DNA of 64,000 nt from positions 84,390-148,389 of the forward strand of contig DVOJ01000015.1 of NCBI GenBank assembly GCA_018713725.1, in the 5' to 3' direction. Source of the DNA: Candidatus Caccopulliclostridium gallistercoris. GTDB lineage: Bacteria > Bacillota > Clostridia > Christensenellales > UBA1242. Below the pieces are notes generated by a model, which worked only from the letters and a program-made list of their open reading frames with translations, did no database searches and was not told where the DNA came from. The position numbers and the translations under genes are program-made. This document shows positions 8,010 to 64,000 of the stretch, one piece after another. The stretch's first letter is position 1. Every line of letters begins with the position of its first letter.

Positions 8010-9541
8010 ATGAAAACGAAAGTAGTAATTTATGCAAGATATAGCAGTGATAAACAAACCGAACAATCTATTGAAGGACAACTTAGAGTTTGTTATGAAT
8101 ATGCTGAAAAATGAATATATGGTTGTTGGAGAATATATTGATAGAGCTCTAACTGGAACAACTGACAAACGACCTGAATTTTTACGAATGATTGAAGATA
8201 GTAAAAAGAAAATGTTTAATTATGTGATTGTTTATCAATTAGATAGATTTGCAAGAAATCGTTATGACAGTGCCACATATAAAGCAAAACTTACAAAAAA
8301 CGGAGTTAGAGTCTTATCTGCAAGAGAAAATATTTCAGACGATGCCAGTGGTGTTTTAATGGAATCTGTGCTTGAGGGCAGAATATTATTCGAAAGAATT
8401 AAGTCAAAAAACAAAGCGTGGAATGAAAGAAACCGTATTGAAAGGTCGCTGGACTGGTGGCTATTTGCCTTATGGCTACAACATATCTGACCATAAATTT
8501 GTAATAAATGAGTATGAAGCAGGCATAATTAGAAAAATCTTTAACGATTACATAAACAATACAAAAATTAAAGATATCGTAGAAGAACTAAACAATATGG
8601 GCATTAAAAACAAATGTGGAAAACCATTTTGTTCAGATTACATCTCTCGAATTTTGCAAAACAAAAGATATATTGGGATTCTTAGTAAAACTTATGAAAC
8701 TGAAGAAAAATCACCAAAAATTATAGATGAAGAAACATTTAATCTTGCAAACGAAAAATTAAAAATGAACAAAGGCAAAAATGCAAAGTATAAGGCAGAT
8801 GAACTTTATTATTTAAGTGGAAAAACAATTTGTGGATACTGTGGTTCACCTATTACAGCAGATAGTGGAACAAATCATAGTGGTAAAATTTATAAGTATT
8901 ACAAATGCTCAAAAAGAAAGAAAAAGAATGCTTGTAAAAAGTCTATAATTCAAAAAGATTTATTTGAAAGTAAAGTTATAGATAAAACAATACAAGATGT
9001 ATTTTCTCCTAAAATTATAGATGAAATTGCCGAAAATATTGTTATTAACTTTAACAAACAAATAAAAGACAATCCAGAAATTATATCTTATGAAAGGCAA
9101 CTAAATGATGTTAGTAAAAAAATTCAAAATATAATGAATGCAATTGAACAAGGAATAATAACAGTAACCACAAAAGAAAAACTTATGCAATATGAAAGCG
9201 ATAAAGCCAACTTGGAGGCTTGTATAACAAAATTAAAGACAAGAACAATACAGCAATTAGATAAGAGCACTGTAAAGGCATTCTTGCACGATTTTGAAGA
9301 CCGAGATTATACAAAACCTGAAAACAGATTTAGATTGCTAGAAATATTTATCAATAAAATATATTTATACGATGATTATGCAATTATTATTTACAACGAC
9401 ATCAAAAATTCAAGTTCAAAAATAGATTTTAGCAATAAAAAAACCGAACCTGAACAAAAGTTCGGATTCGGCTCTTTTGGCTCCCCAGGTAGGATTCGAA
9501 CCTACGACCTATCGGTTAACAGCCGAGTGCTCCACCGCTGA
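8010..9541 (+). pseudogene. large serine recombinase, disrupted by two frameshifts
   Basis: ATG at 8010 gives MKTKVVIYARYSSDKQTEQSIEGQLRVCYEYAEK, then TGA at 8112..8114 right after an A5 run (8107..8111). The protein continues in frame 1 (NEYMVVGEYIDRALTGT...VLMESVLEG) and again in frame 2 from ~8375 (AEYYSKELSQKTKRGM...), with zinc-ribbon Cys pairs and a coiled-coil. The last ~35 codons are antisense to the tRNA-Asn terminator and gene. Confidence 0.8.
9437..9465 (-). terminator. intrinsic terminator of tRNA-Asn
   Basis: The minus strand reads CCGAAC-ttttgttcag-GTTCGG-ttttttt, starting 12 nt after the tRNA CCA end. Confidence 0.65.
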
Positions 9542-9552
9542 GCTACTGAGGA
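9478..9552 (-). tRNA. tRNA-Asn (anticodon GTT), CCA encoded
   Basis: Manual fold of TCCTCAGTAGCTCAGCGGTGGAGCACTCGGCTGTTAACCGATAGGTCGTAGGTTCGAATCCTACCTGGGGAGCCA gives a 7-bp acceptor stem, GCTC/GAGC D stem, anticodon loop CTGTTAA, and T arm GTAGG-TTCGAAT-CCTAC. Confidence 0.9.
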
Positions 9553-56105: not shown

Positions 56106-57743
56106 ATGGACACACAAAAATTAGCAAATCTATTATACCCAAACGCAAAGCCAGTGGAATATTGGCTAGAAAAATATCCACCGCGCGAGCTTAAACGCGG
56201 CGCAGAAGTTACGCGTTTAGCGCCCAGCCCTACGGGATATCTTCACACAGGGCACGCATACAGCGCGCTAATAAACAAACTCACCGCAGAAAAAAGCGGC
56301 GGAATATTCTATTTAAGGCTTGAAGATACAGACCAAAAGCGCTTAATTGAGCACGCCGGCGACATAGCATACAATATGCTAGTCAGCTATAACCTTTCTC
56401 CAAACGAAGGTTACCGCGGCGACGAGCTTGCACAAATTGGCGATTACGGCGATTACGTTCAAAGTAAGAGGTTAAATATATATCAAAGCTTTGCAAAATT
56501 TTTAGTAGAAAAAGGCAGAGCCTTCCCGTGCTTTTGCAAGAAGAGTGAAGGCATAGAAGACGTGGAAGAGCGCAGGCAAAAGCAGCTTGAAGAGAGCGGA
56601 GAAATTTTAGAGCACGACCCTTGCAGAAATTTAAGCCTAGAAGAGATAGAAGAAAAACTTGCTGCTGGCGAAGAGTTCGCGCTAAAACTTAAAAGTAAGG
56701 GTGACCCGGAAAAAACCTTTAAATTTACCGACCTTATTAAAGGCGAGCGCGAAATTAGAGAGAATGCCAAAGACATAGTGCTCATGAAAAGTAATGGCAT
56801 TCCACCCTACGCCTTTGCGCACGCGGTAGACGATAGCCTAATGCACACCACAATAGTTGTGCGCGGCGAAGAGTGGTACCCTTCACTATCTGCGCACATA
56901 GAGCTATTTAAAGCGCTTGGCTTCAAGCCGCCAAAATACGCCCACACCCCAGTTATTTGCAAACTAGACGAAAACGGCAATAAGCGTAAACTCAGCAAGC
57001 GCAAAGACCCAGAAGCCGACGTAAGATATTTTATAGTTGAAGGCTATCCAAAGGTAGCGGTTATAGAATATCTATTAAACCTGTTAAATTCCGACTTTGA
57101 ACCATGGCGCGCAGCTAACCCTACGCTAAGCTATAAAGAGTTCCCGTTTAGCATAGAAAAAATTGGCTCCAACAACCCTATGTTCGACTTTGTAAAGCTA
57201 GCAGACGTATCAAAAAACTACATCTCTCACCTAACCGCCGACGAAGTATACAGCATGCTAGTAGAATGGGCAAAGAGTTTTGACGTAGACTTCTGCAAGA
57301 CGCTCACGGAAAACGCGGACTTCTCAAAAGCCGTGCTTAACATTGACCGCGACGTGCCAAAGCCTAGAAAGGACATCTCCAAGTGGAGCGAAGTAAAAAG
57401 TTATTACGACTATATGTTTTACGGCATAAAAACGTACGAGCTAGACGGCTTAGACAAGAAGAAATTTAAAGAAATAATAGCCGCCTATAAAGATATTTAT
57501 AGCGAAGAAGACGACAAAGAAACGTGGTTCAATAAAATAAAAGCCATGGCAGAAAGCCTAGGCTACGCCACCAATAATAAGGATTATAAAGCAAATCCCG
57601 AAAGCTACAAAGGAAACGTAGCCGACGTGTGCACATATATCCGCTTAGCGCTCACCGGCCGCAAGAACTCACCAGACATATACAGCATAGCCCGCGTTCT
57701 CGGCGCCCGCGAAGTGAATAGAAGATTTGAAAAGGTGGTATAA
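56106..57743 (+). CDS. gltX: glutamate--tRNA ligase family enzyme
   Basis: Class I motifs APSPTGYLHTGH (HIGH) and KLSKRK (KMSKS), 545 aa. Confidence 0.8.
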   Translation: MDTQKLANLLYPNAKPVEYWLEKYPPRELKRGAEVTRLAPSPTGYLHTGHAYSALINKLTAEKSGGIFYLRLEDTDQKRLIEHAGDIAYNMLVSYNLSPNEGYRGDELAQIGDYGDYVQSKRLNIYQSFAKFLVEKGRAFPCFCKKSEGIEDVEERRQKQLEESGEILEHDPCRNLSLEEIEEKLAAGEEFALKLKSKGDPEKTFKFTDLIKGEREIRENAKDIVLMKSNGIPPYAFAHAVDDSLMHTTIVVRGEEWYPSLSAHIELFKALGFKPPKYAHTPVICKLDENGNKRKLSKRKDPEADVRYFIVEGYPKVAVIEYLLNLLNSDFEPWRAANPTLSYKEFPFSIEKIGSNNPMFDFVKLADVSKNYISHLTADEVYSMLVEWAKSFDVDFCKTLTENADFSKAVLNIDRDVPKPRKDISKWSEVKSYYDYMFYGIKTYELDGLDKKKFKEIIAAYKDIYSEEDDKETWFNKIKAMAESLGYATNNKDYKANPESYKGNVADVCTYIRLALTGRKNSPDIYSIARVLGAREVNRRFEKVV

Positions 57744-57754
57744 AGGTATATAAA

Positions 57755-57781
57755 AAAGACGCATTAATTAAAATGCGTCTT
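57755..57781 (+). repeat. 27-bp direct repeat copy 1 (gltX terminator hairpin without its T-tail)
   Basis: aaagacgcattaattaaaatgcgtctt is identical to 57954..57980. Here it is followed by element A3 rather than a T-run. Confidence 0.9.
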
Positions 57782-57934
57782 CAGGCTGTTGAAAAACGGC
57801 GCGAACGAAAAATTCTTTAGAATTTTTCTTGCTGCGTTTACTGAAAAACGCCTAAAAACAGTCATTTAGGTCACTAAACTCCTGCTTTTAGGCATTTTTC
57901 GAGCCTTGCCTCGCTCGGTTAAAGAACAGCCTGA
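57781..57934 (+). repeat. long-hairpin element family A, copy A3
   Basis: Terminal arms TCAGGCTG/CAGCCTGA, internal stems GCCTAAAA/TTTTAGGC and TTTAG/CTAAA, and the scaffold shared with A1 and A2 (present here as its reverse complement on the plus strand). Confidence 0.8.
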
Positions 57935-57953
57935 TTTAATTTGTCTACAGTCT

Positions 57954-57990
57954 AAAGACGCATTAATTAAAATGCGTCTTTTATAGTTTT
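57954..57990 (+). terminator. gltX intrinsic terminator (27-bp direct repeat copy 2 plus T-tail)
   Basis: gacgcatt-aattaa-aatgcgtc hairpin followed by ttttatagtttt. Confidence 0.7.
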
Positions 57991-58200
57991 ACACTTTTTT
58001 GCGCCTGAACACTTAACTTTTTACCTTCTTTAATAGTTTGCGCTTCCGTTTTAGCTTGTTTCCAGCTTTTTTCGCTTTAAATTTCTTCTTTTGCTAATAG
58101 TTTTTACTAGCTTAGATTAGCGCCTTACGGCGCGGATTTCCTAACTTAACTAAAATTTCCAATTATTTTTGTTACGCTTGGAAATTTGCCCATCTCTCCA

Positions 58201-59736
58201 CTAACTTATTGAGATTTTGAAAGCAGGGCGCGCGCAGCGAGTATCATAGGCATTGTTAGTATAACCGATATAGCCGAACGCATTGACATAGTTCACAGAG
58301 TAAGTACCAGACGAATAAGGCGAACGGAGCCAATAGTAATAATCCCAACTTCTTGCTCCTGAATCTGCTGCTGTACCTTGCGTTATGGTTATTTTTGATG
58401 CTTCGTAGTAGCTTAAAAGCCAGAGTTTATCTTTTGTAGTATCAGGATCAATTCCTGCTACTCCTTTTGTTTCTACTCCATCCTTCACATCGGCATCAAA
58501 TGTTACTGCTGCACCTGATGTACTACCACCCATTCTTGAATATAGTTCAGAAAGACTCCTTCCTTCTATCATGCTATATACTGGTGAACTTGTTATATTA
58601 AACACATCTAAAAAGTTTTCTGGTTCTGTTTGTCCTGTTGCTTTTGCCGGAATTCTATCCGAGCCACTACGTTTATATCCTCTATATACGTCTGTTCCTG
58701 TTAGATACTCTCGGATATTACTTACTGCGTAGTCATTTACGTTTACTGTATTTTCATATTCGTCTAATCTTGGATATGAGCCAGAATTTGTAAAATTATT
58801 TTCAAAACAACAAACAAACACGTTTTCTATATAGGTATCTAATAGAAAATAGTAACTTCCGCTTAAAGTGGTATTTTGTGTGTAATTTGCTACACTCTCT
58901 ACGTCTGTCCCTTCTTCATTTTCCTTTAATACCATGCGCCATACTAGTGGGGTTATTTCATGTGTTGTTGGGTCTTCATATTCTCCCATTGTAATAGTCC
59001 AGTAACCGTCTACAACATCTGTGGTACCTGGATCGTCTGCTACCCATTCTAAATAATCGGTAACCGATGGAAAATATTCTGTAAATTCAAAATTTAATGC
59101 AATAGGCTGACTTAAACTGCTACTAAAATTATTTAAAGTTAGCGTAATAGTATAAGTAGCCGTTCCCGGCTGTTCTCCGTTTTTCTCCGGAATTTTAATA
59201 ACTCCGCCTGTTACGCTCTCTTCCGCCGTAACGTCTTCACCAAATGAAGCAAGCGCGGTAGTTAGCGCTGGTGTTGAACCGTCCGCTGTGGAGTAGTTTA
59301 CTATTGTGGCATTTACTGGAAATTCTGAGTAGTTTGTAAAGGTAAAGTTGTACCTTATTACCTTGTTTGTTTCGTCAAACTCTATTGTTCCAATGCTCCA
59401 AGCCGTCATTGCGCCGTTTGATGCTGTTCCTACCGGAGTATCGTCAAACGTTGTAGCAGTTTGTCCGGTTTCCGTCTGCTCGGTAACTGCGTCGTAAGAA
59501 TAGCCTATATATTTATAGTCTGTTCCCGTAGTATCCACTGCATCTGCAAGTGAGCCTGTGCTAGCGCCCTTTTGAATTTGCCCGTTAACCTTTACGTACA
59601 CACCTTTTGCTTCAAAGCTAACGTTACTTGTAACGTCTAGGCTAACTTGGCTTGCGGCAAGCACTCCGCACGTTAGCATTGCCATGCTTATGGCAAGTGC
59701 AGAAATGCTACCTATAATTCTCGTTTTCTTTTTCAT
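58201..59736 (-). CDS. secreted protein with a DUF6273-like C-terminal domain (511 aa)
   Basis: Signal peptide MKKKTRIIGSISALAISMAMLTCGVLAA. The C-terminus YYWLRSPYSSG...TRCARPAFKI resembles the WLRSP...RPA motif of that family (recalled). Confidence 0.7.
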   Translation of the reverse strand: MKKKTRIIGSISALAISMAMLTCGVLAASQVSLDVTSNVSFEAKGVYVKVNGQIQKGASTGSLADAVDTTGTDYKYIGYSYDAVTEQTETGQTATTFDDTPVGTASNGAMTAWSIGTIEFDETNKVIRYNFTFTNYSEFPVNATIVNYSTADGSTPALTTALASFGEDVTAEESVTGGVIKIPEKNGEQPGTATYTITLTLNNFSSSLSQPIALNFEFTEYFPSVTDYLEWVADDPGTTDVVDGYWTITMGEYEDPTTHEITPLVWRMVLKENEEGTDVESVANYTQNTTLSGSYYFLLDTYIENVFVCCFENNFTNSGSYPRLDEYENTVNVNDYAVSNIREYLTGTDVYRGYKRSGSDRIPAKATGQTEPENFLDVFNITSSPVYSMIEGRSLSELYSRMGGSTSGAAVTFDADVKDGVETKGVAGIDPDTTKDKLWLLSYYEASKITITQGTAADSGARSWDYYYWLRSPYSSGTYSVNYVNAFGYIGYTNNAYDTRCARPAFKISIS

Positions 59737-59884
59737 AATATTCTCCTTTGTTATTATTTTATTTTTTAGTTTTTTTATTCTATTTTAGCAAATGTCTTTA
59801 CATACTAATAGATTATATAGATATATTAACATAGACTGGCAGACTTTGTAAAATAAATTTTATTATTTTTAAAATCACGTAGTG

Positions 59885-59914
59885 ATTCTACCCCCCCCCT
59901 CGCATTTTTGTCAA
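59885..59914 (-). promoter_or_regulatory. promoter module D1 with a homopolymeric G tract in the spacer, reading toward 58201..59736
   Basis: The minus strand reads TTGACA (59914..59909) - 18-nt spacer containing G9 (C9 at 59891..59899) - TAGAAT (59890..59885). The palindrome aatcacgtagtgatt (59873..59887) overlaps the -10. Confidence 0.55.
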
Positions 59915-59960
59915 GCGAAATTAATTAGTTTTATAAAAATTCTATTATCCCGCAAAGCTT

Positions 59961-60020
59961 CTTCGTCAGCCCTTACCATCGTCACCCTGAGCGGAGCGCT
60001 GAAGGCGCGCAGTCGAACGG
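59961..60020 (+). repeat. interspersed repeat family C, copy C1
   Basis: cttcgtcagcccttaccatcgtcaccctgagcggagcgc...gcgcgcagtcgaac aligns with 60587..60643. Confidence 0.75.
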
Positions 60021-60136
60021 GTCTCCGTCGGGCTAGCAGAGCAATATTTTATTTTGTCGGCTTGCCCCCGTACAAAAATGCTGCTGCACTTTTCTTTTTT
60101 ACTATAATTTACACTTTTGAATTTTCTGCTCGTTTA

Positions 60137-60180
60137 GGTAAAATGACCTTGCAAAATTATTTTTGCAAGGTCATTTTACC
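60137..60180. repeat. perfect 20-bp-stem hairpin
   Basis: ggtaaaatgaccttgcaaaa-ttat-ttttgcaaggtcattttacc. The right arm contains the -10 (TAAAAT on the minus strand) of promoter module D2 and runs into the C12 tract. Confidence 0.85.
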
Positions 60181-60203
60181 CCCCCCCCCCGCATTTTTGT
60201 CAA
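60173..60203 (-). promoter_or_regulatory. promoter module D2 (duplicate of D1) with a G12 tract in the spacer
   Basis: The minus strand reads TTGACA (60203..60198) - 19-nt spacer containing G12 (C12 at 60179..60190) - TAAAAT (60178..60173). The 35-nt block poly-C + gcatttttgtcaagcgaaattaa is shared with 59890..59924. Confidence 0.5.
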
Positions 60204-60303
60204 GCGAAATTAAACACTTTTCTAGTTTTTTTTACTTTTCCTTTCCTGCCACACTATAGCTTGAACAAAAATGCAGTATTTTAGAAGATTTTTTAAAATT
60301 TGT

Positions 60304-60445
60304 GGCGGGTCGCGGGAGGAGATTCATTCGACTGCATATTAACTAATCTTCGTATTCATGCAATACAACTAGCATACACAACGATTATCACGATTCCTTC
60401 CGCTCAGAATGACAGCGGAGTAGAGCCGTTGCAAGAGTCTTCGAA
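60304..60445 (+). repeat. interspersed repeat family B, diverged copy B3
   Basis: Contains gggaggagattcattcgac and ccgctcagaatgacagcgg (60400..60418). The latter forms an inverted repeat with 60492..60510 in B2. Confidence 0.55.
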
Positions 60446-60473
60446 GTCTCTTCGTAGGCTTTATTTCTATGCT

Positions 60474-60578
60474 CTCCCGCGAAGCCCAACCCCGCTGTCA
60501 TTCTGAGCAGCGAGCACCCAGCGTTAGCGGTGCGACTATCTGCGAAGAATCTCCTTGCCACCCTAGCTAGCGAGACTC
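60474..60578 (-). repeat. interspersed repeat family B, copy B2
   Basis: Its reverse complement gagtctcgctagctagggtggcaaggagattcttcgcag...gctcagaatgacagcgg aligns with B1 (18248..18347). Confidence 0.75.
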
Positions 60579-60586
60579 CACCTTAT

Positions 60587-60643
60587 CTTCGGCAGCCCTT
60601 ACCATCGTCACCCTGAGCGGAGCGCGCAAGCGCGCAGTCGGAC
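60587..60643 (+). repeat. interspersed repeat family C, copy C2
   Basis: cttcggcagcccttaccatcgtcaccctgagcggagcgcgcaagcgcgcagtcggac aligns with C1. Confidence 0.75.
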
Positions 60644-60661
60644 TTACAAAGCAAAAAAAAC

Positions 60662-60718
60662 AAAAAAACTAGCCCTTTTTCTTTTCGGCAAAAAGCCAAA
60701 ATTTAGGCTAGTTTTTTT
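60662..60718. terminator. compound bidirectional terminator after the DUF378 gene
   Basis: aaaaaaactagcc...ggctagttttttt outer stem enclosing a ttttcggc-aaaaa-gccaaaa inner hairpin. Confidence 0.55.
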
Positions 60719-60720
60719 AG

Positions 60721-60939
60721 TTAGTCTCTACTAGAATTTAAAATTATGCTTCTTCTCATGCACGCGGATATTATTAGCCAAGTTGCAGAAATGAGCACTA
60801 AAATGTAAACTATTATGCTGCCCGCATTGTAGCCACCAAATATCCAGTCTACTAGGTTAAAGTTGAAAATGCCAACTAAACCCCAGTTGATGCCGCCAAT
60901 GAGCAAAATAATGAAACTGATTATATTTGCTATTACCAT
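60721..60939 (-). CDS. DUF378-family small membrane protein
   Basis: 72 aa. LIGGINWGLVGIFNFNLVDWIFGG matches the conserved DUF378 core (recalled). Confidence 0.8.
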   Translation of the reverse strand: MVIANIISFIILLIGGINWGLVGIFNFNLVDWIFGGYNAGSIIVYILVLISATWLIISACMRRSIILNSSRD

Positions 60940-60987
60940 TTTTTACCTCCCTAATTTAAGGTTGTGTAAAAAATTTACTTTTATTCA

Positions 60988-62808
60988 TTATGTTAAATTT
61001 TCCGCAACAAACATGTTTCTAAATAGCTCGTTCCTATCAAAAAGCTCTTGGAAAGTGCCCACGTCTAAAACTTTTCCTTGGTCTAGGAAATATATCACGT
61101 CGGAATTTCTTATTGTGGAAAGCCTGTGCGCAACTATTATAATTGTGCTTTCGCCCTTTAAGGCGTCTATGCTTTTCTTGATATCTTCCTGCGCAAAGTT
61201 ATCTAAGCTAGACGTGCTTTCGTCAAAAATTATTATAGCGGAATTTCTAAGTAGCGCACGAGCTATGGCTAGCCTTTGCTTTTGCCCGCCAGATAGCTTT
61301 ATGCCGCCTTCGCCCACACGCGTGTTGATGCCTTTTGGAAGGGAAGAAACAAACTCCCAAAGGCTCGCCTTCTTTAACGCGTCTTCCATTTCTTCTTCCG
61401 TGGCGTCCGCCTTTGCTAAGCTCATATTTTCCTTTATTGTCATATCGAATATGTATGGAAATTGGTTCACAAGGGAAATGCCGTTTCGGAGTGTTTCCTT
61501 ATCTAAGTCGTTTATGTTCACGCCGTCTATAAGAACTTCTCCGCTATCCACAACGTACATTTTAGACATAAGGTTAAGTATTGTGGACTTCCCGCTGCCC
61601 GAGCGCCCCACAAACGCCACCGTAGTGTTCGGTTTAATTTTAAAGTTTAAATTTTCAAAAATTTGGTTTGTGGAAGCAATTTTTCTTTGTTTTTTTGTGT
61701 TTTTATCGCGTTTTTTGCGCTTTTTATTCTCTTCTTCCTTCTCTTCTTCGTATTCCACGTAAGAATAGCTTACGTTTTTGAATTCTATCTCGCCTTTTAG
61801 TTTATCTAAATGCACATTTCCAAAATGCTCTGTTGCGAACCTATCGTCGTCGAACAAGGCAAACATTCTATCCTTGCACACGCGGATTTCTGCAAACTTA
61901 CTGCTTATGTTGCCCGCAGACCAAACTAGGTCGTAGATATATCCCCTGTTTGAGTACACAATCATGAACGCCGCCATGGTCATTGTGCCAAGGTCCATAA
62001 AATATACGCCTAAAATCAATACGCCTATGGTCACAATTTCAATAAGTGTGTTTCTAAAACTCCAAAAGTTGCAGTCCGTCATGCTAAGTTTATAGGAAGC
62101 CTTTTTATACGAATCGTAATTTTCCTTAGATACCTCTTCAAGCTTTTGCTCTAAGCCAAGGCTCTTTATGTCCTTTTCGCTTCTAACAATTTCCGTGGTC
62201 AAGGAATTAATCTTGTCGTTTTTCTTTCTGGTATCTACCCTATTTTTCTTAAAAACCTTTACACGTTTAATTTCAAATAGTGCGCATATTATTATAAGCC
62301 CTATTAAAATTAGCGAAACGTAAACATTTAAAGTTGTAATGTAAATTATAATTACAAGCGCAGACACCATATCCATTAGCGTAATTATTACGTCGGAAAG
62401 GTTTGTAACTATACGCTCTGGGTCGGCAACAATTCTTTGAACAAAAGTGCCTATGTCGTTATCGGAATAAGTTTTGGAATTTAATTTAAACGCCTGACGA
62501 GCTAAATCAAAATTTAATTCCGACATAATTCTATTTGTGTATTTATAATAAATTCTATTACTTAAATACCACCCAAGCCTTTTAATTATTACAACGCCAA
62601 TTACAAAAAGTAAAGAATAAATTGCGTCTAAATATAAATTAAAAGTTATTTTTTCTATAATATCTGCAAATAAAATAGTTTGTAAAATATCGCACGCAGA
62701 AGCTATTGCATAAATTAAAATATATAAAATTATTTGAATTTTATACCTTTTTAAATAAGGCTTTAACCCTATTTTTGCCTTATTTTCTTTTATTTTTTTA
62801 TTTTTCAT
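60988..62808 (-). CDS. ABC exporter, fused permease + ATPase (606 aa)
   Basis: Six N-terminal TM helices, Walker A GRSGSGKST, signature LSGGQKQR and Walker B IIIFDESTSSLD. A K/E-rich insertion (EEEKEEENKKRKKRDKNTKKQRK) precedes the NBD core. Confidence 0.9.
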   Translation of the reverse strand: MKNKKIKENKAKIGLKPYLKRYKIQIILYILIYAIASACDILQTILFADIIEKITFNLYLDAIYSLLFVIGVVIIKRLGWYLSNRIYYKYTNRIMSELNFDLARQAFKLNSKTYSDNDIGTFVQRIVADPERIVTNLSDVIITLMDMVSALVIIIYITTLNVYVSLILIGLIIICALFEIKRVKVFKKNRVDTRKKNDKINSLTTEIVRSEKDIKSLGLEQKLEEVSKENYDSYKKASYKLSMTDCNFWSFRNTLIEIVTIGVLILGVYFMDLGTMTMAAFMIVYSNRGYIYDLVWSAGNISSKFAEIRVCKDRMFALFDDDRFATEHFGNVHLDKLKGEIEFKNVSYSYVEYEEEKEEENKKRKKRDKNTKKQRKIASTNQIFENLNFKIKPNTTVAFVGRSGSGKSTILNLMSKMYVVDSGEVLIDGVNINDLDKETLRNGISLVNQFPYIFDMTIKENMSLAKADATEEEMEDALKKASLWEFVSSLPKGINTRVGEGGIKLSGGQKQRLAIARALLRNSAIIIFDESTSSLDNFAQEDIKKSIDALKGESTIIIVAHRLSTIRNSDVIYFLDQGKVLDVGTFQELFDRNELFRNMFVAENLT

Positions 62809-62851
62809 AAAATTACCCCTTTACTAAATTTTTATAAGCGCCTTTTTTGCA

Positions 62852-62881
62852 TAAAAAAAGCCTGCAAAATTCGCAAAGGCT
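62852..62881 (-). terminator. intrinsic terminator between a short upstream ORF and the ABC exporter gene (possible attenuator)
   Basis: The minus strand reads aagcct-ttgcgaattttgc-aggctt followed by tttttttat. It lies 44 nt upstream of the ABC start. Confidence 0.45.
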
Positions 62882-62887
62882 TAAAAT

Positions 62888-62956
62888 TTAAAAAATATTT
62901 TCGGCACAATGCGAAACGCTTAAATTATTAAATTTTATTAATTCGACTTTATTCAT
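62888..62956 (-). CDS. possible 22-codon leader ORF (MNKVELIKFNNLSVSHCAENIF)
   Basis: AGGAGG (62973..62968) lies 11 nt upstream of ATG 62956, and a 4-codon ORF (ATG 62963) overlaps it. A terminator hairpin follows immediately. Not in the ORF track (too short). Confidence 0.25.
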   Translation of the reverse strand: MNKVELIKFNNLSVSHCAENIF

Positions 62957-63024
62957 TTCGCATTATTCCTCCTTTATTTTTAAAATAACATAAGGGCTGA
63001 CATTTGTCAACCCTTAAATTAAAT

Positions 63025-63825
63025 TTATTTTTTTAAATATTCATAAAAATTATTATATCTAATTTTATTTAATGCCTCATCGCTGTATCCGCGACCTTTT
63101 AATTCCATTAAAATATTTTCTACGTCGCAGTAATCCTTTACATCTTCCGGCAGTTCGTCCGTGCCGTTGAAGTCCGTGCCAAACCCAACGCAGTCTATAC
63201 CGCAAAAGTTTACAATGTAGTCTATGTGGTCGGCCACCGTTTTACTCGTCACTTTGCCGCTAGATAAAAAGTCCGTTACAAAATACACACCTATAAAACC
63301 CTTAGTGTCCTTAAAAATTTTTAGCTGCTCATTGGTCAAATTTCTAGTAGTATTACAAAGTGCGTCCACCGCAGTGTGAGAGTTAAATAGCGGCCTAGAC
63401 GTAAGCTTTGCAAGGTCAAAAAAGCTTTCCCTATTTAAGTGCGCCGTGTCTATTATAACACCGCTTTTTTCAAAAAGTTTTATAACCCTTTCCCCAAAGT
63501 CCGAAATACTTCCCTTGCCAAAGCAGCCGCCCGCAAGGCAGTTTGTGTCGTTCCAAGTAAGCCCGGTGTAGAAGGGCTTAAAACTTAAAAACTCTTCTAA
63601 GTTATCTTCCTTTAAAAACCAGCAGTCTTCCACGCAAAGTTTAAGTTCTGTGGTAAGTTTTTTACTATCTAAAAACTCCTTTGCCTTCTTAATTTTTGTC
63701 ATAGGGTCGGAAATTTCGCTCGTCCAAACAGGAGAGCAAAGAAGCTTCAAATACTCTTCTCGCTCGTCTAAATATGTGGGCTTTACGCCTTTTGTTAAAT
63801 AGTCGTTATGTGTATCTATAATCAT
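63025..63825 (-). CDS. membrane-dipeptidase (peptidase M19) family protein
   Basis: MIIDTHNDYL, IIDTAHL and GFGTDFNG match the metal-ligand motifs of the family. Confidence 0.75.
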   Translation of the reverse strand: MIIDTHNDYLTKGVKPTYLDEREEYLKLLCSPVWTSEISDPMTKIKKAKEFLDSKKLTTELKLCVEDCWFLKEDNLEEFLSFKPFYTGLTWNDTNCLAGGCFGKGSISDFGERVIKLFEKSGVIIDTAHLNRESFFDLAKLTSRPLFNSHTAVDALCNTTRNLTNEQLKIFKDTKGFIGVYFVTDFLSSGKVTSKTVADHIDYIVNFCGIDCVGFGTDFNGTDELPEDVKDYCDVENILMELKGRGYSDEALNKIRYNNFYEYLKK

Positions 63826-63902
63826 ATTACTATGTTATACAAAACCTTTTAAAATATTCAATAAAAAAGCCAAAATAGCGTTTTTACTATTTGGCTTTAT
63901 TT

Positions 63903-64000
63903 TTACTCACGGTCTGCGCCTATTGCAATTCTAACCTTCTTTAAAGTTTGTTTTGCAATACTTCTTGCGCGCTCTGCACCGCTCTTTAAAATCTCGTCTA
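63903..64000 (-). CDS. trpS: 3' end of an aminoacyl-tRNA ligase gene, most likely tryptophan--tRNA ligase (5' part outside window)
   Basis: The minus strand reads ...DEILKSGAERARSIAKQTLKKVRIAIGADRE*, which resembles the conserved TrpS C-terminus (…GaekAr.iA..tl..vk..mGl). Confidence 0.45.
   Translation of the reverse strand, partial: DEILKSGAERARSIAKQTLKKVRIAIGADRE

Follow-up and report, generated by a model that had tools for sequence, protein, structure and literature searches.

A secreted-protein gene is preceded here by two promoter-like modules, D1 and D2, each with a run of G between its -35 and -10 hexamers. Do these runs switch the gene by changing length? Invertible promoters are the main known form of phase variation in gut Firmicutes, and an initial annotation of this locus named slipped-strand mispairing as a candidate. 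The window, by which we mean the whole 64,000-base stretch analysed (37.7% G+C), comes from an uncultured chicken-gut Clostridia bacterium.

Two predicted promoters with G tracts precede the gene

Direct reading of the minus strand confirmed the two modules as TTGACA-aaaatgcga-G9-TAGAAT (D1, spacer 18 nt) and TTGACA-aaaatgc-G12-TAAAAT (D2, spacer 19 nt). As had been claimed, the -35 hexamer is perfect in both (TTGACA at 59914-59909 and 60203-60198); the -10 hexamers are near-consensus.

59909..59914, minus strand: D1 -35 hexamer TTGACA (sequence and consensus scan)
59891..59899, minus strand: D1 poly-G tract G9, a C run on the plus strand, with GA before it at 59900-59901
59885..59890, minus strand: D1 -10 hexamer TAGAAT (sequence and consensus scan)
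60198..60203, minus strand: D2 -35 hexamer TTGACA (sequence)
60179..60190, minus strand: D2 poly-G tract G12 (sequence and assembly comparison)
60173..60178, minus strand: D2 -10 hexamer TAAAAT (sequence)
59823..59852, minus strand: second promoter-like site, in the D1 5' leader, TTTACA-18-TAATAT with TG (consensus scan)
58201..59736, minus strand: predicted controlled gene, 511 aa (ORF and domain search)

A 45-nt direct repeat with 89% identity is common to the two modules, whose -35 elements start 289 bp apart rather than the 288 bp given before. D1 was the top promoter-like site in a consensus scan of 57500-63000, with 11/12 matches; the scan covers spacers of 16-18 nt only, and D2, with 19 nt, lies beyond this range and was judged by eye. 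For D1, D2 and all related copies, the assignment as promoters is made from consensus matches and position. The tracts of D1 and D2 are the sole G/C runs of at least 7 in the window, where its composition predicts about 0.03 runs of at least 9 and about 0.0002 of at least 12 (our own arithmetic), so they are not a product of chance.

D1 points at the 511-aa gene at the expected distance of about 150 nt: the ATG lies 148 nt past the D1 -10 hexamer and is preceded by a ribosome-binding site, GGAG at 59746-59743. The encoded protein has a signal-peptide-like N-terminus, a beta-sandwich region and a C-terminal DUF6273 domain (E 3.6e-11). Its AF2 model (pLDDT 81.8) consists of pilin-like beta-sandwiches, and the best PDB match to the model is the DUF6273-containing IgA peptidase of T. 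ramosa. With this N-terminus, and with DUF6273 or BspA-LRR domains in its family, the gene has the features of a surface or secreted contingency function. NCBIfam returned no name for DUF6273 members, and tblastn of the window found no further paralogues of the protein.

The module is a cassette ahead of one gene family

In five MAG species labelled 'uncultured Clostridia', we counted about 26 occurrences of the 18-mer TTCGCTTGACAAAAATGC with a G tract and then TA[GA]AAT behind it. At least 15 cassettes were counted in one MAG, at least five related MAG species carry the cassette, and further copies were found in metagenomes. In unrelated taxa, TTCGCTTGACAAAAATGC is present without the G tract. 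The layout consists of an A-rich upstream region, TTCGC, TTGACA, AAAATGC, G(n) and TA[G/A]AAT. Thus in D1, D2 and about 50 related copies a homopolymer lies inside the -35/-10 spacer of a predicted sigma-70-type promoter, with 7 or 9 nt before G(n).

The cassette stands nearly always upstream of one paralogous signal-peptide family, 45-660 nt from the gene, whose C-terminal domains are DUF6273 or BspA LRR_5. At least one cassette was present in 25/28 family genes with upstream sequence available, and about 10 have a tandem pair. At the L040 and L028 loci, the cassette is the sole strong promoter-like site, 62-63 nt ahead of the ATG. Both observations strengthen the reading of the cassette as a promoter. 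Against control of our gene by D1 and D2, the second site at 59852-59823 could transcribe it independently of them.

G runs of at least 7 in 229 kb of clade DNA were cassette-associated in 30/30 cases. Tract lengths were sharply peaked at G9 (28/54 copies), which gives a family mode of 16 nt for the spacer, not 17. The spacers of general promoter-like sites in the window peak at 17-18 nt, with low counts from a small window.

Tract length differs between strains

Invariant tracts among strains would speak against a length-dependent switch. In the assemblies compared, tract lengths varied at both D1 and D2 while their flanks were conserved; all lengths were taken from short-read metagenome consensus assemblies. 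Across assemblies of the same locus, the D2 tract was G9, G5AG5, G11 or G12, and the D1 tract was GA+G9, GA+G8 or G10, with GA+G9 in 9/11 assemblies. The window and contig L046 showed 0 mismatches and one 1-nt tract gap in 7,537 bp. A paralogous cassette ahead of an identical protein was found in three samples: L110 and L111 showed 0 mismatches and one 3-nt gap (G9 versus G12) in 3,132 bp, and L113 has G10. The tract was also the only gap between L002 and L075 and between L099 and L100, and in another set its length was G9 (L081), G9 (L082) or G13 (L086). These pairs, in which the tract is the sole difference over 7,537 bp and 3,132 bp, support the proposed candidate mechanism of slipped-strand phase variation. 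Differences of 1 nt could be assembly or PCR artefacts, and those of 3-4 nt are unlikely to be explained in this way. Taken comparatively, slipped-strand variation of the promoter spacer is a well-supported candidate.

Sample ERZ27234800, whose contig L047 matches the window without a difference over 5.3 kb, contains a paralogue, P0040 (54% identical), with a tract decayed to GGAAGGGG. An ORF at 59882-60259 was called as a 125-133-aa 'gene' whose length is set by the tract length. Poly-G tracts of this kind break assemblies and yield spurious ORFs, of which 59882-60259 is an example.

The same variation can be read without a switch. The cassette may be a real family promoter in which the G run is merely a tolerated, mutation-prone spacer, with expression set by ordinary regulation and length changes being neutral or mildly deleterious noise, partly from assembly error. 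The sharp peak at G9 fits this view, and could have arisen from a mutational equilibrium instead of selection for ON/OFF states. So do the almost invariant D1, the many interrupted or decayed tracts (GA+G9, G5AG5, G8A, and GGAAGGGG in L105) and the family member L024, whose hexamers stand 18 nt apart without any G run. However, about 50 copies from at least five species retain a G run of at least 8; the genome has 38% G+C and such runs occur nowhere else, which argues for selection maintaining the tract. Moreover, shifts of 3-4 nt in the -35/-10 distance are established to alter sigma-70-type promoters, and a change from G9 to G12 or G13 must do so here. We therefore consider a merely tolerated tract unlikely, although it deserves to be kept in mind, and prefer a tract that acts on the promoter.

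D2 lies in a 289-bp unit that varies between strains

59925..60213, no strand: 289-bp unit holding D2, present or absent between strains (assembly comparison); the 24-bp repeat TTAATTTCGCTTGACAAAAATGCG allows several equivalent placements, of which one is given

L048 and L049 lack this unit. It is bounded by a 24-bp direct repeat, TTAATTTCGCTTGACAAAAATGCG, at 60213-60190 and 59924-59901. Such presence and absence between strains, together with the many dispersed copies, several of them at contig ends, and surroundings dense in GC-rich miniature repeats, would also suit a module formed by the terminus of a small mobile or miniature repeat element and not by a promoter, with D2 as a recent insertion. 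Several observations oppose this. The copies stand in a single orientation ahead of one gene family and not at random sites, no transposase accompanies them, and their -35/-10 hexamers are perfectly conserved with promoter-like spacing. The terminal inverted repeats and target-site duplication of MITEs at unrelated sites were not what we found. The bounding 24-bp repeat is itself cassette sequence, and the upstream half of D1 can be traced through the 289-bp unit; MITE insertion was rejected on these two grounds as the origin of the unit, and recombination between tandem cassettes is preferred. A mobile-element end thus seems highly improbable, and we retain the promoter reading for both modules.

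Palindromes and inverted copies accompany the cassettes

60137..60180, no strand: perfect palindrome H, 20-bp arms and 4-nt loop (inverted-repeat search)
59870..59890, minus strand: short palindrome of D1, TAGAATCAC-TAC-GTGATTTTA, from the first base of the -10 hexamer (sequence)
60259..60274, minus strand: upstream inverted copy GCATTTTTGTTCAAGC of the D2 core GCTTGACAAAAATGC (sequence comparison)
60072..60080, minus strand: CATTTTTGT, the corresponding upstream inverted copy of D1 (sequence comparison)
60081..60136, minus strand: linker conserved among tandem-cassette loci (consensus scan and locus comparison)
59960..60004, plus strand: GC-rich dispersed repeat C1 in the D2-D1 interval (repeat search)

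Both -10 elements are overlapped by palindromes, as first noticed. At D1, a 15-nt core (AATCAC-TAC-GTGATT, 59887-59873) extends to a 9-bp stem of TAGAATCAC and GTGATTTTA with one G-T pair. At D2, the perfect 20-nt arms of palindrome H (60137-60156 and 60161-60180) take in the -10 hexamer and the final two G of the tract. An A-rich stretch (60214-60258) separates GCATTTTTGTTCAAGC from the D2 core, and GC-rich repeat DNA lies between CATTTTTGT and the D1 core. On the plus strand of the linker, TTGAAT (60117-60122) stands 16 nt ahead of the TAAAAT in the other arm of palindrome H (60139-60144). The D2-D1 interval does contain repeat C1, as stated earlier; its second copy is at 60586-60630.

These elements raise the possibility that a DNA-binding protein or DNA structure exerts the main control, with the G run secondary. 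Its candidates would be the ACAAAAATG/CATTTTTGT inverted pairs, which overlap the -35 region, and the -10 palindrome, for which the proposed roles are those of operator, cruciform or convergent promoter. All four ACAAAAATG sites of the window fall in 59903-60273, where inverted pairs of them bracket each cassette; stems of at least 12 bp in palindromes that start at the -10 are far commoner at cassettes (8/42) than at control TA[GA]AAT sites (2/311); and an opposite-strand site, TTGAAT/TTGTAA-16-TA[GA]AAT, is conserved in the linker. On the other hand, the arm sequences vary between copies, which does not suit a common operator, and many gene-proximal cassettes have no palindrome. The number of ACAAAAATG sites, 4 against 1.85 expected, was reached in 14/100 shuffles, leaving only their clustering notable. 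Control of this kind is also compatible with a tract switch and does not exclude one. We regard it as improbable for the main control; the -10 palindrome and the ACAAAAATG inverted pairs hint at an additional or alternative one beside the tract.

Other candidates were rejected for the locus. An Rfam scan of 57500-64000 (E up to 1) returned two chance-level hits only, far below gathering thresholds, and the folding of the leader from D2 to the ATG (z = -3.5) is owed to the palindrome and GC-rich repeats, leaving nothing relevant for a structured RNA. The site scan and leader folding gave nothing terminator-like between D2 and the gene. The only tRNA of the window is at 9478-9552, which speaks against a tRNA or integration site here. 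For an invertible promoter, no flipped orientation was seen in any of more than 10 assemblies of the locus, and the inverted copies GCATTTTTGT(T)CAAGC and GCTTGACAAAAATGC enclose just about 52 A-rich nt, which is not the arrangement of an inverton.

The gene ends in a hypervariable stretch of DGR type

58204..58347, minus strand: C-terminal hypervariable stretch with DGR-type signature (sequence comparison)

Over the last ~40 codons, variation was found at codon positions 1 and 2 and none at position 3. Among the last 52 codons, codons 31-39 show as many as four different bases at positions 1/2 and no change at position 3. The variable sites between WLRSP and CARPAF, both invariant motifs, lack K, E, Q, M and W; two variable positions immediately upstream of WLRSP do have K and E. 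Judged by this pattern, the variation of the 58201-59736 gene appears confined to template-adenine codon positions, as in a DGR target. Several paralogues share similar terminal motifs.

DUF6273 proteins are DGR variable-protein targets with C-type-lectin-like folds (PMC10743442), and the window gene resembles them in ending with a C-terminal DUF6273 domain that carries position-1/2 variation. Unlike DGR systems, the window contained neither a template repeat nor a reverse transcriptase. A local DGR was rejected, since the window and about 110 fetched loci yielded neither a template repeat nor another copy of the variable-region DNA; a DGR might act on the gene in trans. The ligand-binding tip of this protein and its orthologues appears to be diversified by a DGR. 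In the literature examined, no description was found of a DGR target combined with a poly-G promoter.

Proposed explanation

We consider it probable (about 0.62) that D1 and D2 are tandem sigma-70-type cassette promoters whose slippage-variable G run switches a secreted, adhesin-like family. From the observed architecture, gene-family association, tract polymorphism and 289-bp polymorphism, we infer that the cassettes are active promoters with transcription starts, that transcription depends on n and that switching occurs within a clone. The cassette would drive a multigene family of secreted, adhesin-like binding proteins in a Caccopulliclostridium-like Clostridia lineage. In the spacer, nothing but the G run varies in length, so that a run of n gives 7 + n nt. 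At replication, slipped-strand mispairing would add or remove G, the altered n would change the -35/-10 spacing and with it promoter strength, and the outcome would be heritable, reversible expression states for each gene separately. Two promoters of this type would serve the window gene. Of their tracts, the uninterrupted G12 of D2 is probably the more mutable, and the interruption in GA+G9 may partially stabilise that of D1. Transcripts from D2 would read through 289 nt of non-coding DNA, then D1, into the gene. Recombination at the 24-bp direct repeat common to D1 and D2 could gain or lose the whole D2 unit and thereby add a level of variation.

A broader proposal is a genome-wide two-layer variation system of poly-G switches, a functional -10 palindrome and a trans DGR in a Gram-positive gut lineage. 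In the first layer, some 15 or more adhesin-like genes would each have their own poly-G switch, some in tandem with unit gain and loss; in the second, the trans DGR would act on these proteins by rewriting their ligand-binding tips. The palindrome, self-templated and perfect, would be a functional part together with the convergent promoter-like site it makes, and cruciform formation or promoter occlusion could sharpen or bias switching. As a whole, this proposal is speculative and rather unlikely.

If our reading is true, repeat-based contingency loci like those of pathogens are also used by a commensal Clostridia lineage, which switches about 15 adhesin-like genes independently of one another and has combinatorial control over both the choice of binding proteins and their ligands. 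In chicken-gut metagenomes, tract lengths could be used to mark strains and states.

Comparison with known systems

The vlp genes of M. hyorhinis (Yogev et al. 1991; Citti and Wise 1995) form a multigene surface-protein family in which the promoter regions are highly conserved and each has a homopolymer between -35 and -10. Each gene reportedly switches ON and OFF independently, giving combinatorial surface types; the tract is poly-A, the products are lipoproteins with repetitive C-termini, and no DGR layer is known. Here, by comparison, the tract is poly-G and the proteins have DUF6273 or LRR binding domains in place of lipoproteins.

That promoter-spacer homopolymers act on surface proteins elsewhere, as previously noted, holds for N. 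meningitidis porA and T. pallidum tp0126, where poly-G/poly-C tracts in the spacer set transcription through the -35/-10 distance (PMC7864442). At tp0126, the tract lies between -35 and -10, and transcription is best with a 17-nt spacer (PMC7864442). Poly-G tracts of about 7-12 nt are found in promoters of the surface-protein genes tp0126 and tpr (tprE/G/J/L), and their lengths vary within and between isolates, mostly around G9 (PMC7864442). Our locus resembles this system in that several paralogous genes have their own poly-G tract each. T. pallidum is a spirochaete pathogen, whereas the present organism is a Gram-positive gut commensal; unlike in T. pallidum, a cassette of about 35-95 nt is near-identical across about 15 loci per genome and can be tandemly duplicated, with a palindrome over the -10.

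A homopolymer in or adjoining the spacer of N. meningitidis porA (poly-G) and opc (poly-C) sets high, medium or no transcription (PMC7864442). The position at the -35/-10 spacer of a predicted promoter is shared with our cassette, but porA and opc are single Gram-negative loci without tandem promoter copies, in contrast to a family-wide cassette. In S. pyogenes M28, a 1-nt indel in the intergenic homopolymer of Spy1336/R28-Spy1337 alters surface-protein gene transcript levels (PMC7098570). This is likewise a Firmicute with an intergenic homopolymer by a surface-protein gene; it is a single locus and is not known as a family-shared -35/-10 spacer cassette. In conclusion, the mechanism is already known from porA, tp0126 and vlp, and the lineage, the gene family, the tandem layout and the -10 palindrome are new.

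Two putative poly-G promoter modules precede the DUF6273 gene

Reading of the minus strand bore out the initial annotation of two promoter modules, D1 and D2, upstream of the DUF6273 gene (58201-59736, minus), with their hexamers, G9 and G12 tracts and spacers of 18 and 19 nt.

Features of the DUF6273 upstream region
60203-60198, minus: D2 -35 hexamer TTGACA, from sequence reading
60190-60179, minus: D2 G12 tract; spacer aaaatgc + G12, 19 nt
60178-60173, minus: D2 -10 hexamer TAAAAT
59914-59909, minus: D1 -35 hexamer TTGACA, from sequence reading
59899-59891, minus: D1 G9 tract; spacer aaaatgcga + G9, 18 nt
59890-59885, minus: D1 -10 hexamer TAGAAT
59852-59823, minus: second promoter-like site, TTTACA-18-TAATAT with upstream TG, within the 148-nt leader
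59960-60004 and 60586-60630: copies of the GC-rich dispersed repeat C1
59981, 60399, 60497, 60607, and one more at 18310: copies of the GTCAYYCTGAGCGGA-core repeat
60402-60426 / 60484-60508: inverted pair of GC-rich repeats

D2 lies 289 bp upstream of D1, and both share a 45-nt repeat (89% identity). D1 was top-ranked in the region by a promoter consensus scan (11/12 matches). It had also been claimed that D1 is aimed at a 511-aa DUF6273 protein gene about 150 nt away and that a perfect palindrome covers the D2 -10 hexamer; indeed the ATG is 148 nt below the D1 -10 hexamer, and a perfect palindrome with 20-nt arms (60137-60180) encloses that of D2. The locus order is ABC transporter, DUF378, D2, D1, DUF6273 gene and GluRS. 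The two tracts are the only G/C runs of at least 7 in the 64-kb window (37.7% G+C), and composition arithmetic gives a chance expectation of about 0.03 runs of at least 9. The 148-nt leader is nearly identical across the aligned assemblies, and the promoter-like site within it could provide tract-independent expression of the DUF6273 gene.

An ORF of 125 aa (59882-60259, plus) crosses both poly-C tracts antisense. Gene calls for it in public assemblies are 125, 126, 132 or 133 aa long, apparently following tract length. It had no Pfam match and is very likely spurious. Between the convergent GluRS and DUF6273 genes (57751-57985), identical 27-nt terminator-like hairpins AAAGACGCATTAATTAAAATGCGTCTT were located at 57755-57781 and 57954-57980, within a larger 46-nt inverted repeat.

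The cassette is dispersed with one gene family

The common unit, TTGACA, AAAATGC, G(n) and TA[G/A]AAT, is called the cassette. The 18-mer TTCGCTTGACAAAAATGC was scanned against one genome per species, and 45 stretches were returned. Eighteen stretches, from unrelated phyla, continued with ordinary sequence after the 18-mer. In five 'uncultured Clostridia bacterium' MAGs it was followed by G8-G10 and TA[G/A]AAT, with the sole exception of one related locus (L024), a family member whose -35 and -10 hexamers are 18 nt apart without a G run. These MAGs hold about 26 G-tract copies, at least 15 of them in BRZ_GA__bin74, and a metagenome scan returned further copies. All 30 G runs of at least 7 in 229 kb of clade DNA were cassette-associated, including four in second cassettes whose -35 hexamer is replaced by a GC-rich repeat. 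Candidatus Caccopulliclostridium gallistercoris itself is a chicken-gut MAG taxon (PMC8035907).

Wherever the DNA downstream of a copy could be read, the next gene was nearly always a member of a single paralogous family, starting 45-660 nt away. The proteins (330-690 aa) share the N-terminal pattern MKKRxKIIAxxSxLCLCLSLLxxGVxAA...LNVxSxLxF, and their C-terminal halves are DUF6273 or BspA-type LRR_5. At least one cassette was found upstream of 25 of the 28 family genes with upstream sequence, and about 10 have two in tandem. In L040 and L028 the cassette lies 62-63 nt upstream of the ATG, and there is no other strong promoter-like site. Conservation often reaches further upstream, and the unit then reads GCATTTTTGT(T)CAAGC, an inverted core copy, then about 52 A-rich nt and the core. 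All four ACAAAAATG sites of the 64-kb window fall within 59903-60273, and this clustered motif may bind a regulator. The four sites form two inverted pairs, one per cassette, overlapping the -35 region.

Tract length varies between strains

Tract alleles of the DUF6273 locus were compared across public assemblies.

Tract alleles at the DUF6273 locus (short-read consensus assemblies)
D2, G12: window, L047
D2, G11: L046
D2, G9: L051, L099
D2, G5AG5: L100
D1, GA+G9: nine assemblies
D1, GA+G8: L098
D1, G10: L097

The initial annotation had proposed slipped-strand phase variation, a reading against which invariant tracts would count. Four D2 alleles and three D1 alleles were observed in these short-read consensus assemblies, and other cassettes also differ in length; the tracts are therefore not invariant. 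One G in the D2 tract was the sole difference between the window and L046 over 7,537 bp. An identical 509-aa family protein (P0042) has a G9, G12 or G10 cassette upstream in three samples, and a 3-nt gap in this tract was the sole difference between L110 and L111 over 3,132 bp. L002 and L075 carry G10 versus G9 with no other gap, and the tracts of L081, L082 and L086 are G9, G9 and G13. Spacers in 54 copies measured 14 nt (1 copy), 15 (9), 16 (28), 17 (4), 18 (9), 19 (2) and 20 nt (1). The family mode is thus 16 nt; for promoter-like sites in general, the window shows a peak at 17-18 nt, in small counts.

Some tracts are interrupted or decayed (for example GA+G9, G8A, G5AG5 and GGAAGGGG); 'locking' changes of this kind are expected where tracts are mutable. 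GGAAGGGG occurs in L105, upstream of the protein P0040, in sample ERZ27234800, which also yields L047, a contig that matches the window without differences across 5.3 kb. P0040 is a 54%-identical paralogue encoded upstream of rpsL; other strains carry another cassette variant, with G9, at this gene, and its upstream regions are mosaic between strains. The genes of L097 and L098 share 82-86% identity with the window gene and have its cassette, leader and first ~110 codons in nearly unchanged form. They lie in another context, after ychF and adjoining a terminase-like gene; therefore either the block of promoter and 5' gene end moves from locus to locus by shuffling, or gene conversion keeps it uniform.

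Cassette number is also variable

A 289-bp unit (59925-60213), containing the D2 tract, palindrome, linker, C1 repeat and D1 upstream half, is exactly missing in L048 and L049, two assemblies from separate studies that have SNPs in common. Each retains a single hybrid cassette, with the D2 upstream flank and the D1 tract and leader. The unit is bounded by a 24-bp direct repeat, TTAATTTCGCTTGACAAAAATGCG, so the cassette number at the DUF6273 gene is strain-variable. Alignment of eight tandem-cassette loci (window, L014, L042, L075, L090, L054, L038 and L069) revealed a common layout of cassette, palindrome, conserved linker (~75 nt) and second cassette, whose upstream half is often interrupted by inserted GC-rich repeats. 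In the window, C1 (59960-60004) splits CATTTTTGT of D1 (60080-60072) from the D1 core. Read most simply, these loci keep an old layout of tandem promoters that recombination between the cassettes expands or collapses, and this is favoured over a transposon insertion as the source of the unit. No terminator-like site was found between D2 and the DUF6273 gene, and D2 transcripts should therefore reach the gene.

GC-rich miniature repeats with the GTCAYYCTGAGCGGA core crowd the ~1-kb intergenic region (59940-60640) of this AT-rich genome. Repeats related to them fill the DNA upstream of paralogues; sometimes, as at L014, L042 and L090, they take the place of the -35 hexamer in the gene-proximal cassette.

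A palindrome covers the -10 hexamer in some cassettes

Perfect stems of 11-22 bp were found in about 10 of 42 distinct cassette copies, among them window 60137-60180, L014, L042, L075, L005, L080 and L103; they start either within the final G of the tract or with the first -10 base. Among control TA[GA]AAT sites, stems of at least 12 bp occurred in 2 of 311. Arm sequences vary from copy to copy but remain self-complementary; identical left arms are found at other places with no right arm, and in the hybrid palindromes of L081, L082 and L086 the two arms derive from different variants. Were transcription to start about 7 nt past the -10 hexamer, the start would lie inside the left arm, and the cassette's own transcript could therefore not form the hairpin. 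The D2 palindrome also creates an opposite-strand site, TTGAAT-16-TAAAAT; the linkers at other loci conserve this site.

The downstream protein has a variable C-terminus

In the AF2 model of the DUF6273 protein (pLDDT 81.8), the N-terminus forms a helix, beta-sandwich regions give weak pilin-like matches, and the C-terminal domain is modelled with confidence. The best PDB match of the model was the IgA peptidase of Thomasclavelia ramosa, which carries a DUF6273 annotation on its N-terminal domain. DUF6273 is described as a C-type-lectin-like fold and a target of diversity-generating retroelements (DGRs) (PMC10743442). Among orthologues 80-98% identical elsewhere, the C-terminal ~40-45 codons (58204-58347, minus) are hypervariable between the invariant motifs WLRSP and CARPAF (CARPAFKIS). 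The variation is confined to codon positions 1 and 2, with position 3 fixed. As judged from the aligned codons, this pattern is a DGR signature and marks a putative DGR-type variable region. No DGR template repeat was found in the window or the fetched loci. Paralogues behind other poly-G cassettes have similar ends (YYWTSSAASA...ARPALLFNL).

Proposed mechanism and comparison with known systems

We infer that each cassette acts as a sigma-70-type promoter with a spacer of 7 + n nt. Slippage in the G run would change the -35/-10 spacing and thereby promoter strength, and expression would switch heritably and reversibly within clones, locus by locus. The DUF6273 gene would have two such promoters together with copy-number change of the D2 unit, and the uninterrupted G12 of D2 would be the more mutable tract.

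No description of such a system was found in the literature for Caccopulliclostridium, and a search for papers on slipped-strand promoter variation in gut Firmicutes gave only a single-locus case in S. pyogenes. The cassettes have the sequence-level features of homopolymer-in-promoter-spacer variation of the porA, tp0126 or vlp type. The vlp genes of M. hyorhinis have a family-wide conserved promoter, and their mechanism is likened to that of the present cassette. The proposed mechanism also resembles the poly-G promoters of N. meningitidis porA and of T. pallidum tp0126 and tpr (PMC7864442). By this analogy, the slipped-strand promoter-spacer mechanism itself would match one already known from porA, tp0126, tpr and vlp; what is unusual here is that cassettes occur in tandem, that a palindrome covers the -10 hexamer and that the promoters are paired with diversification of the DGR type.
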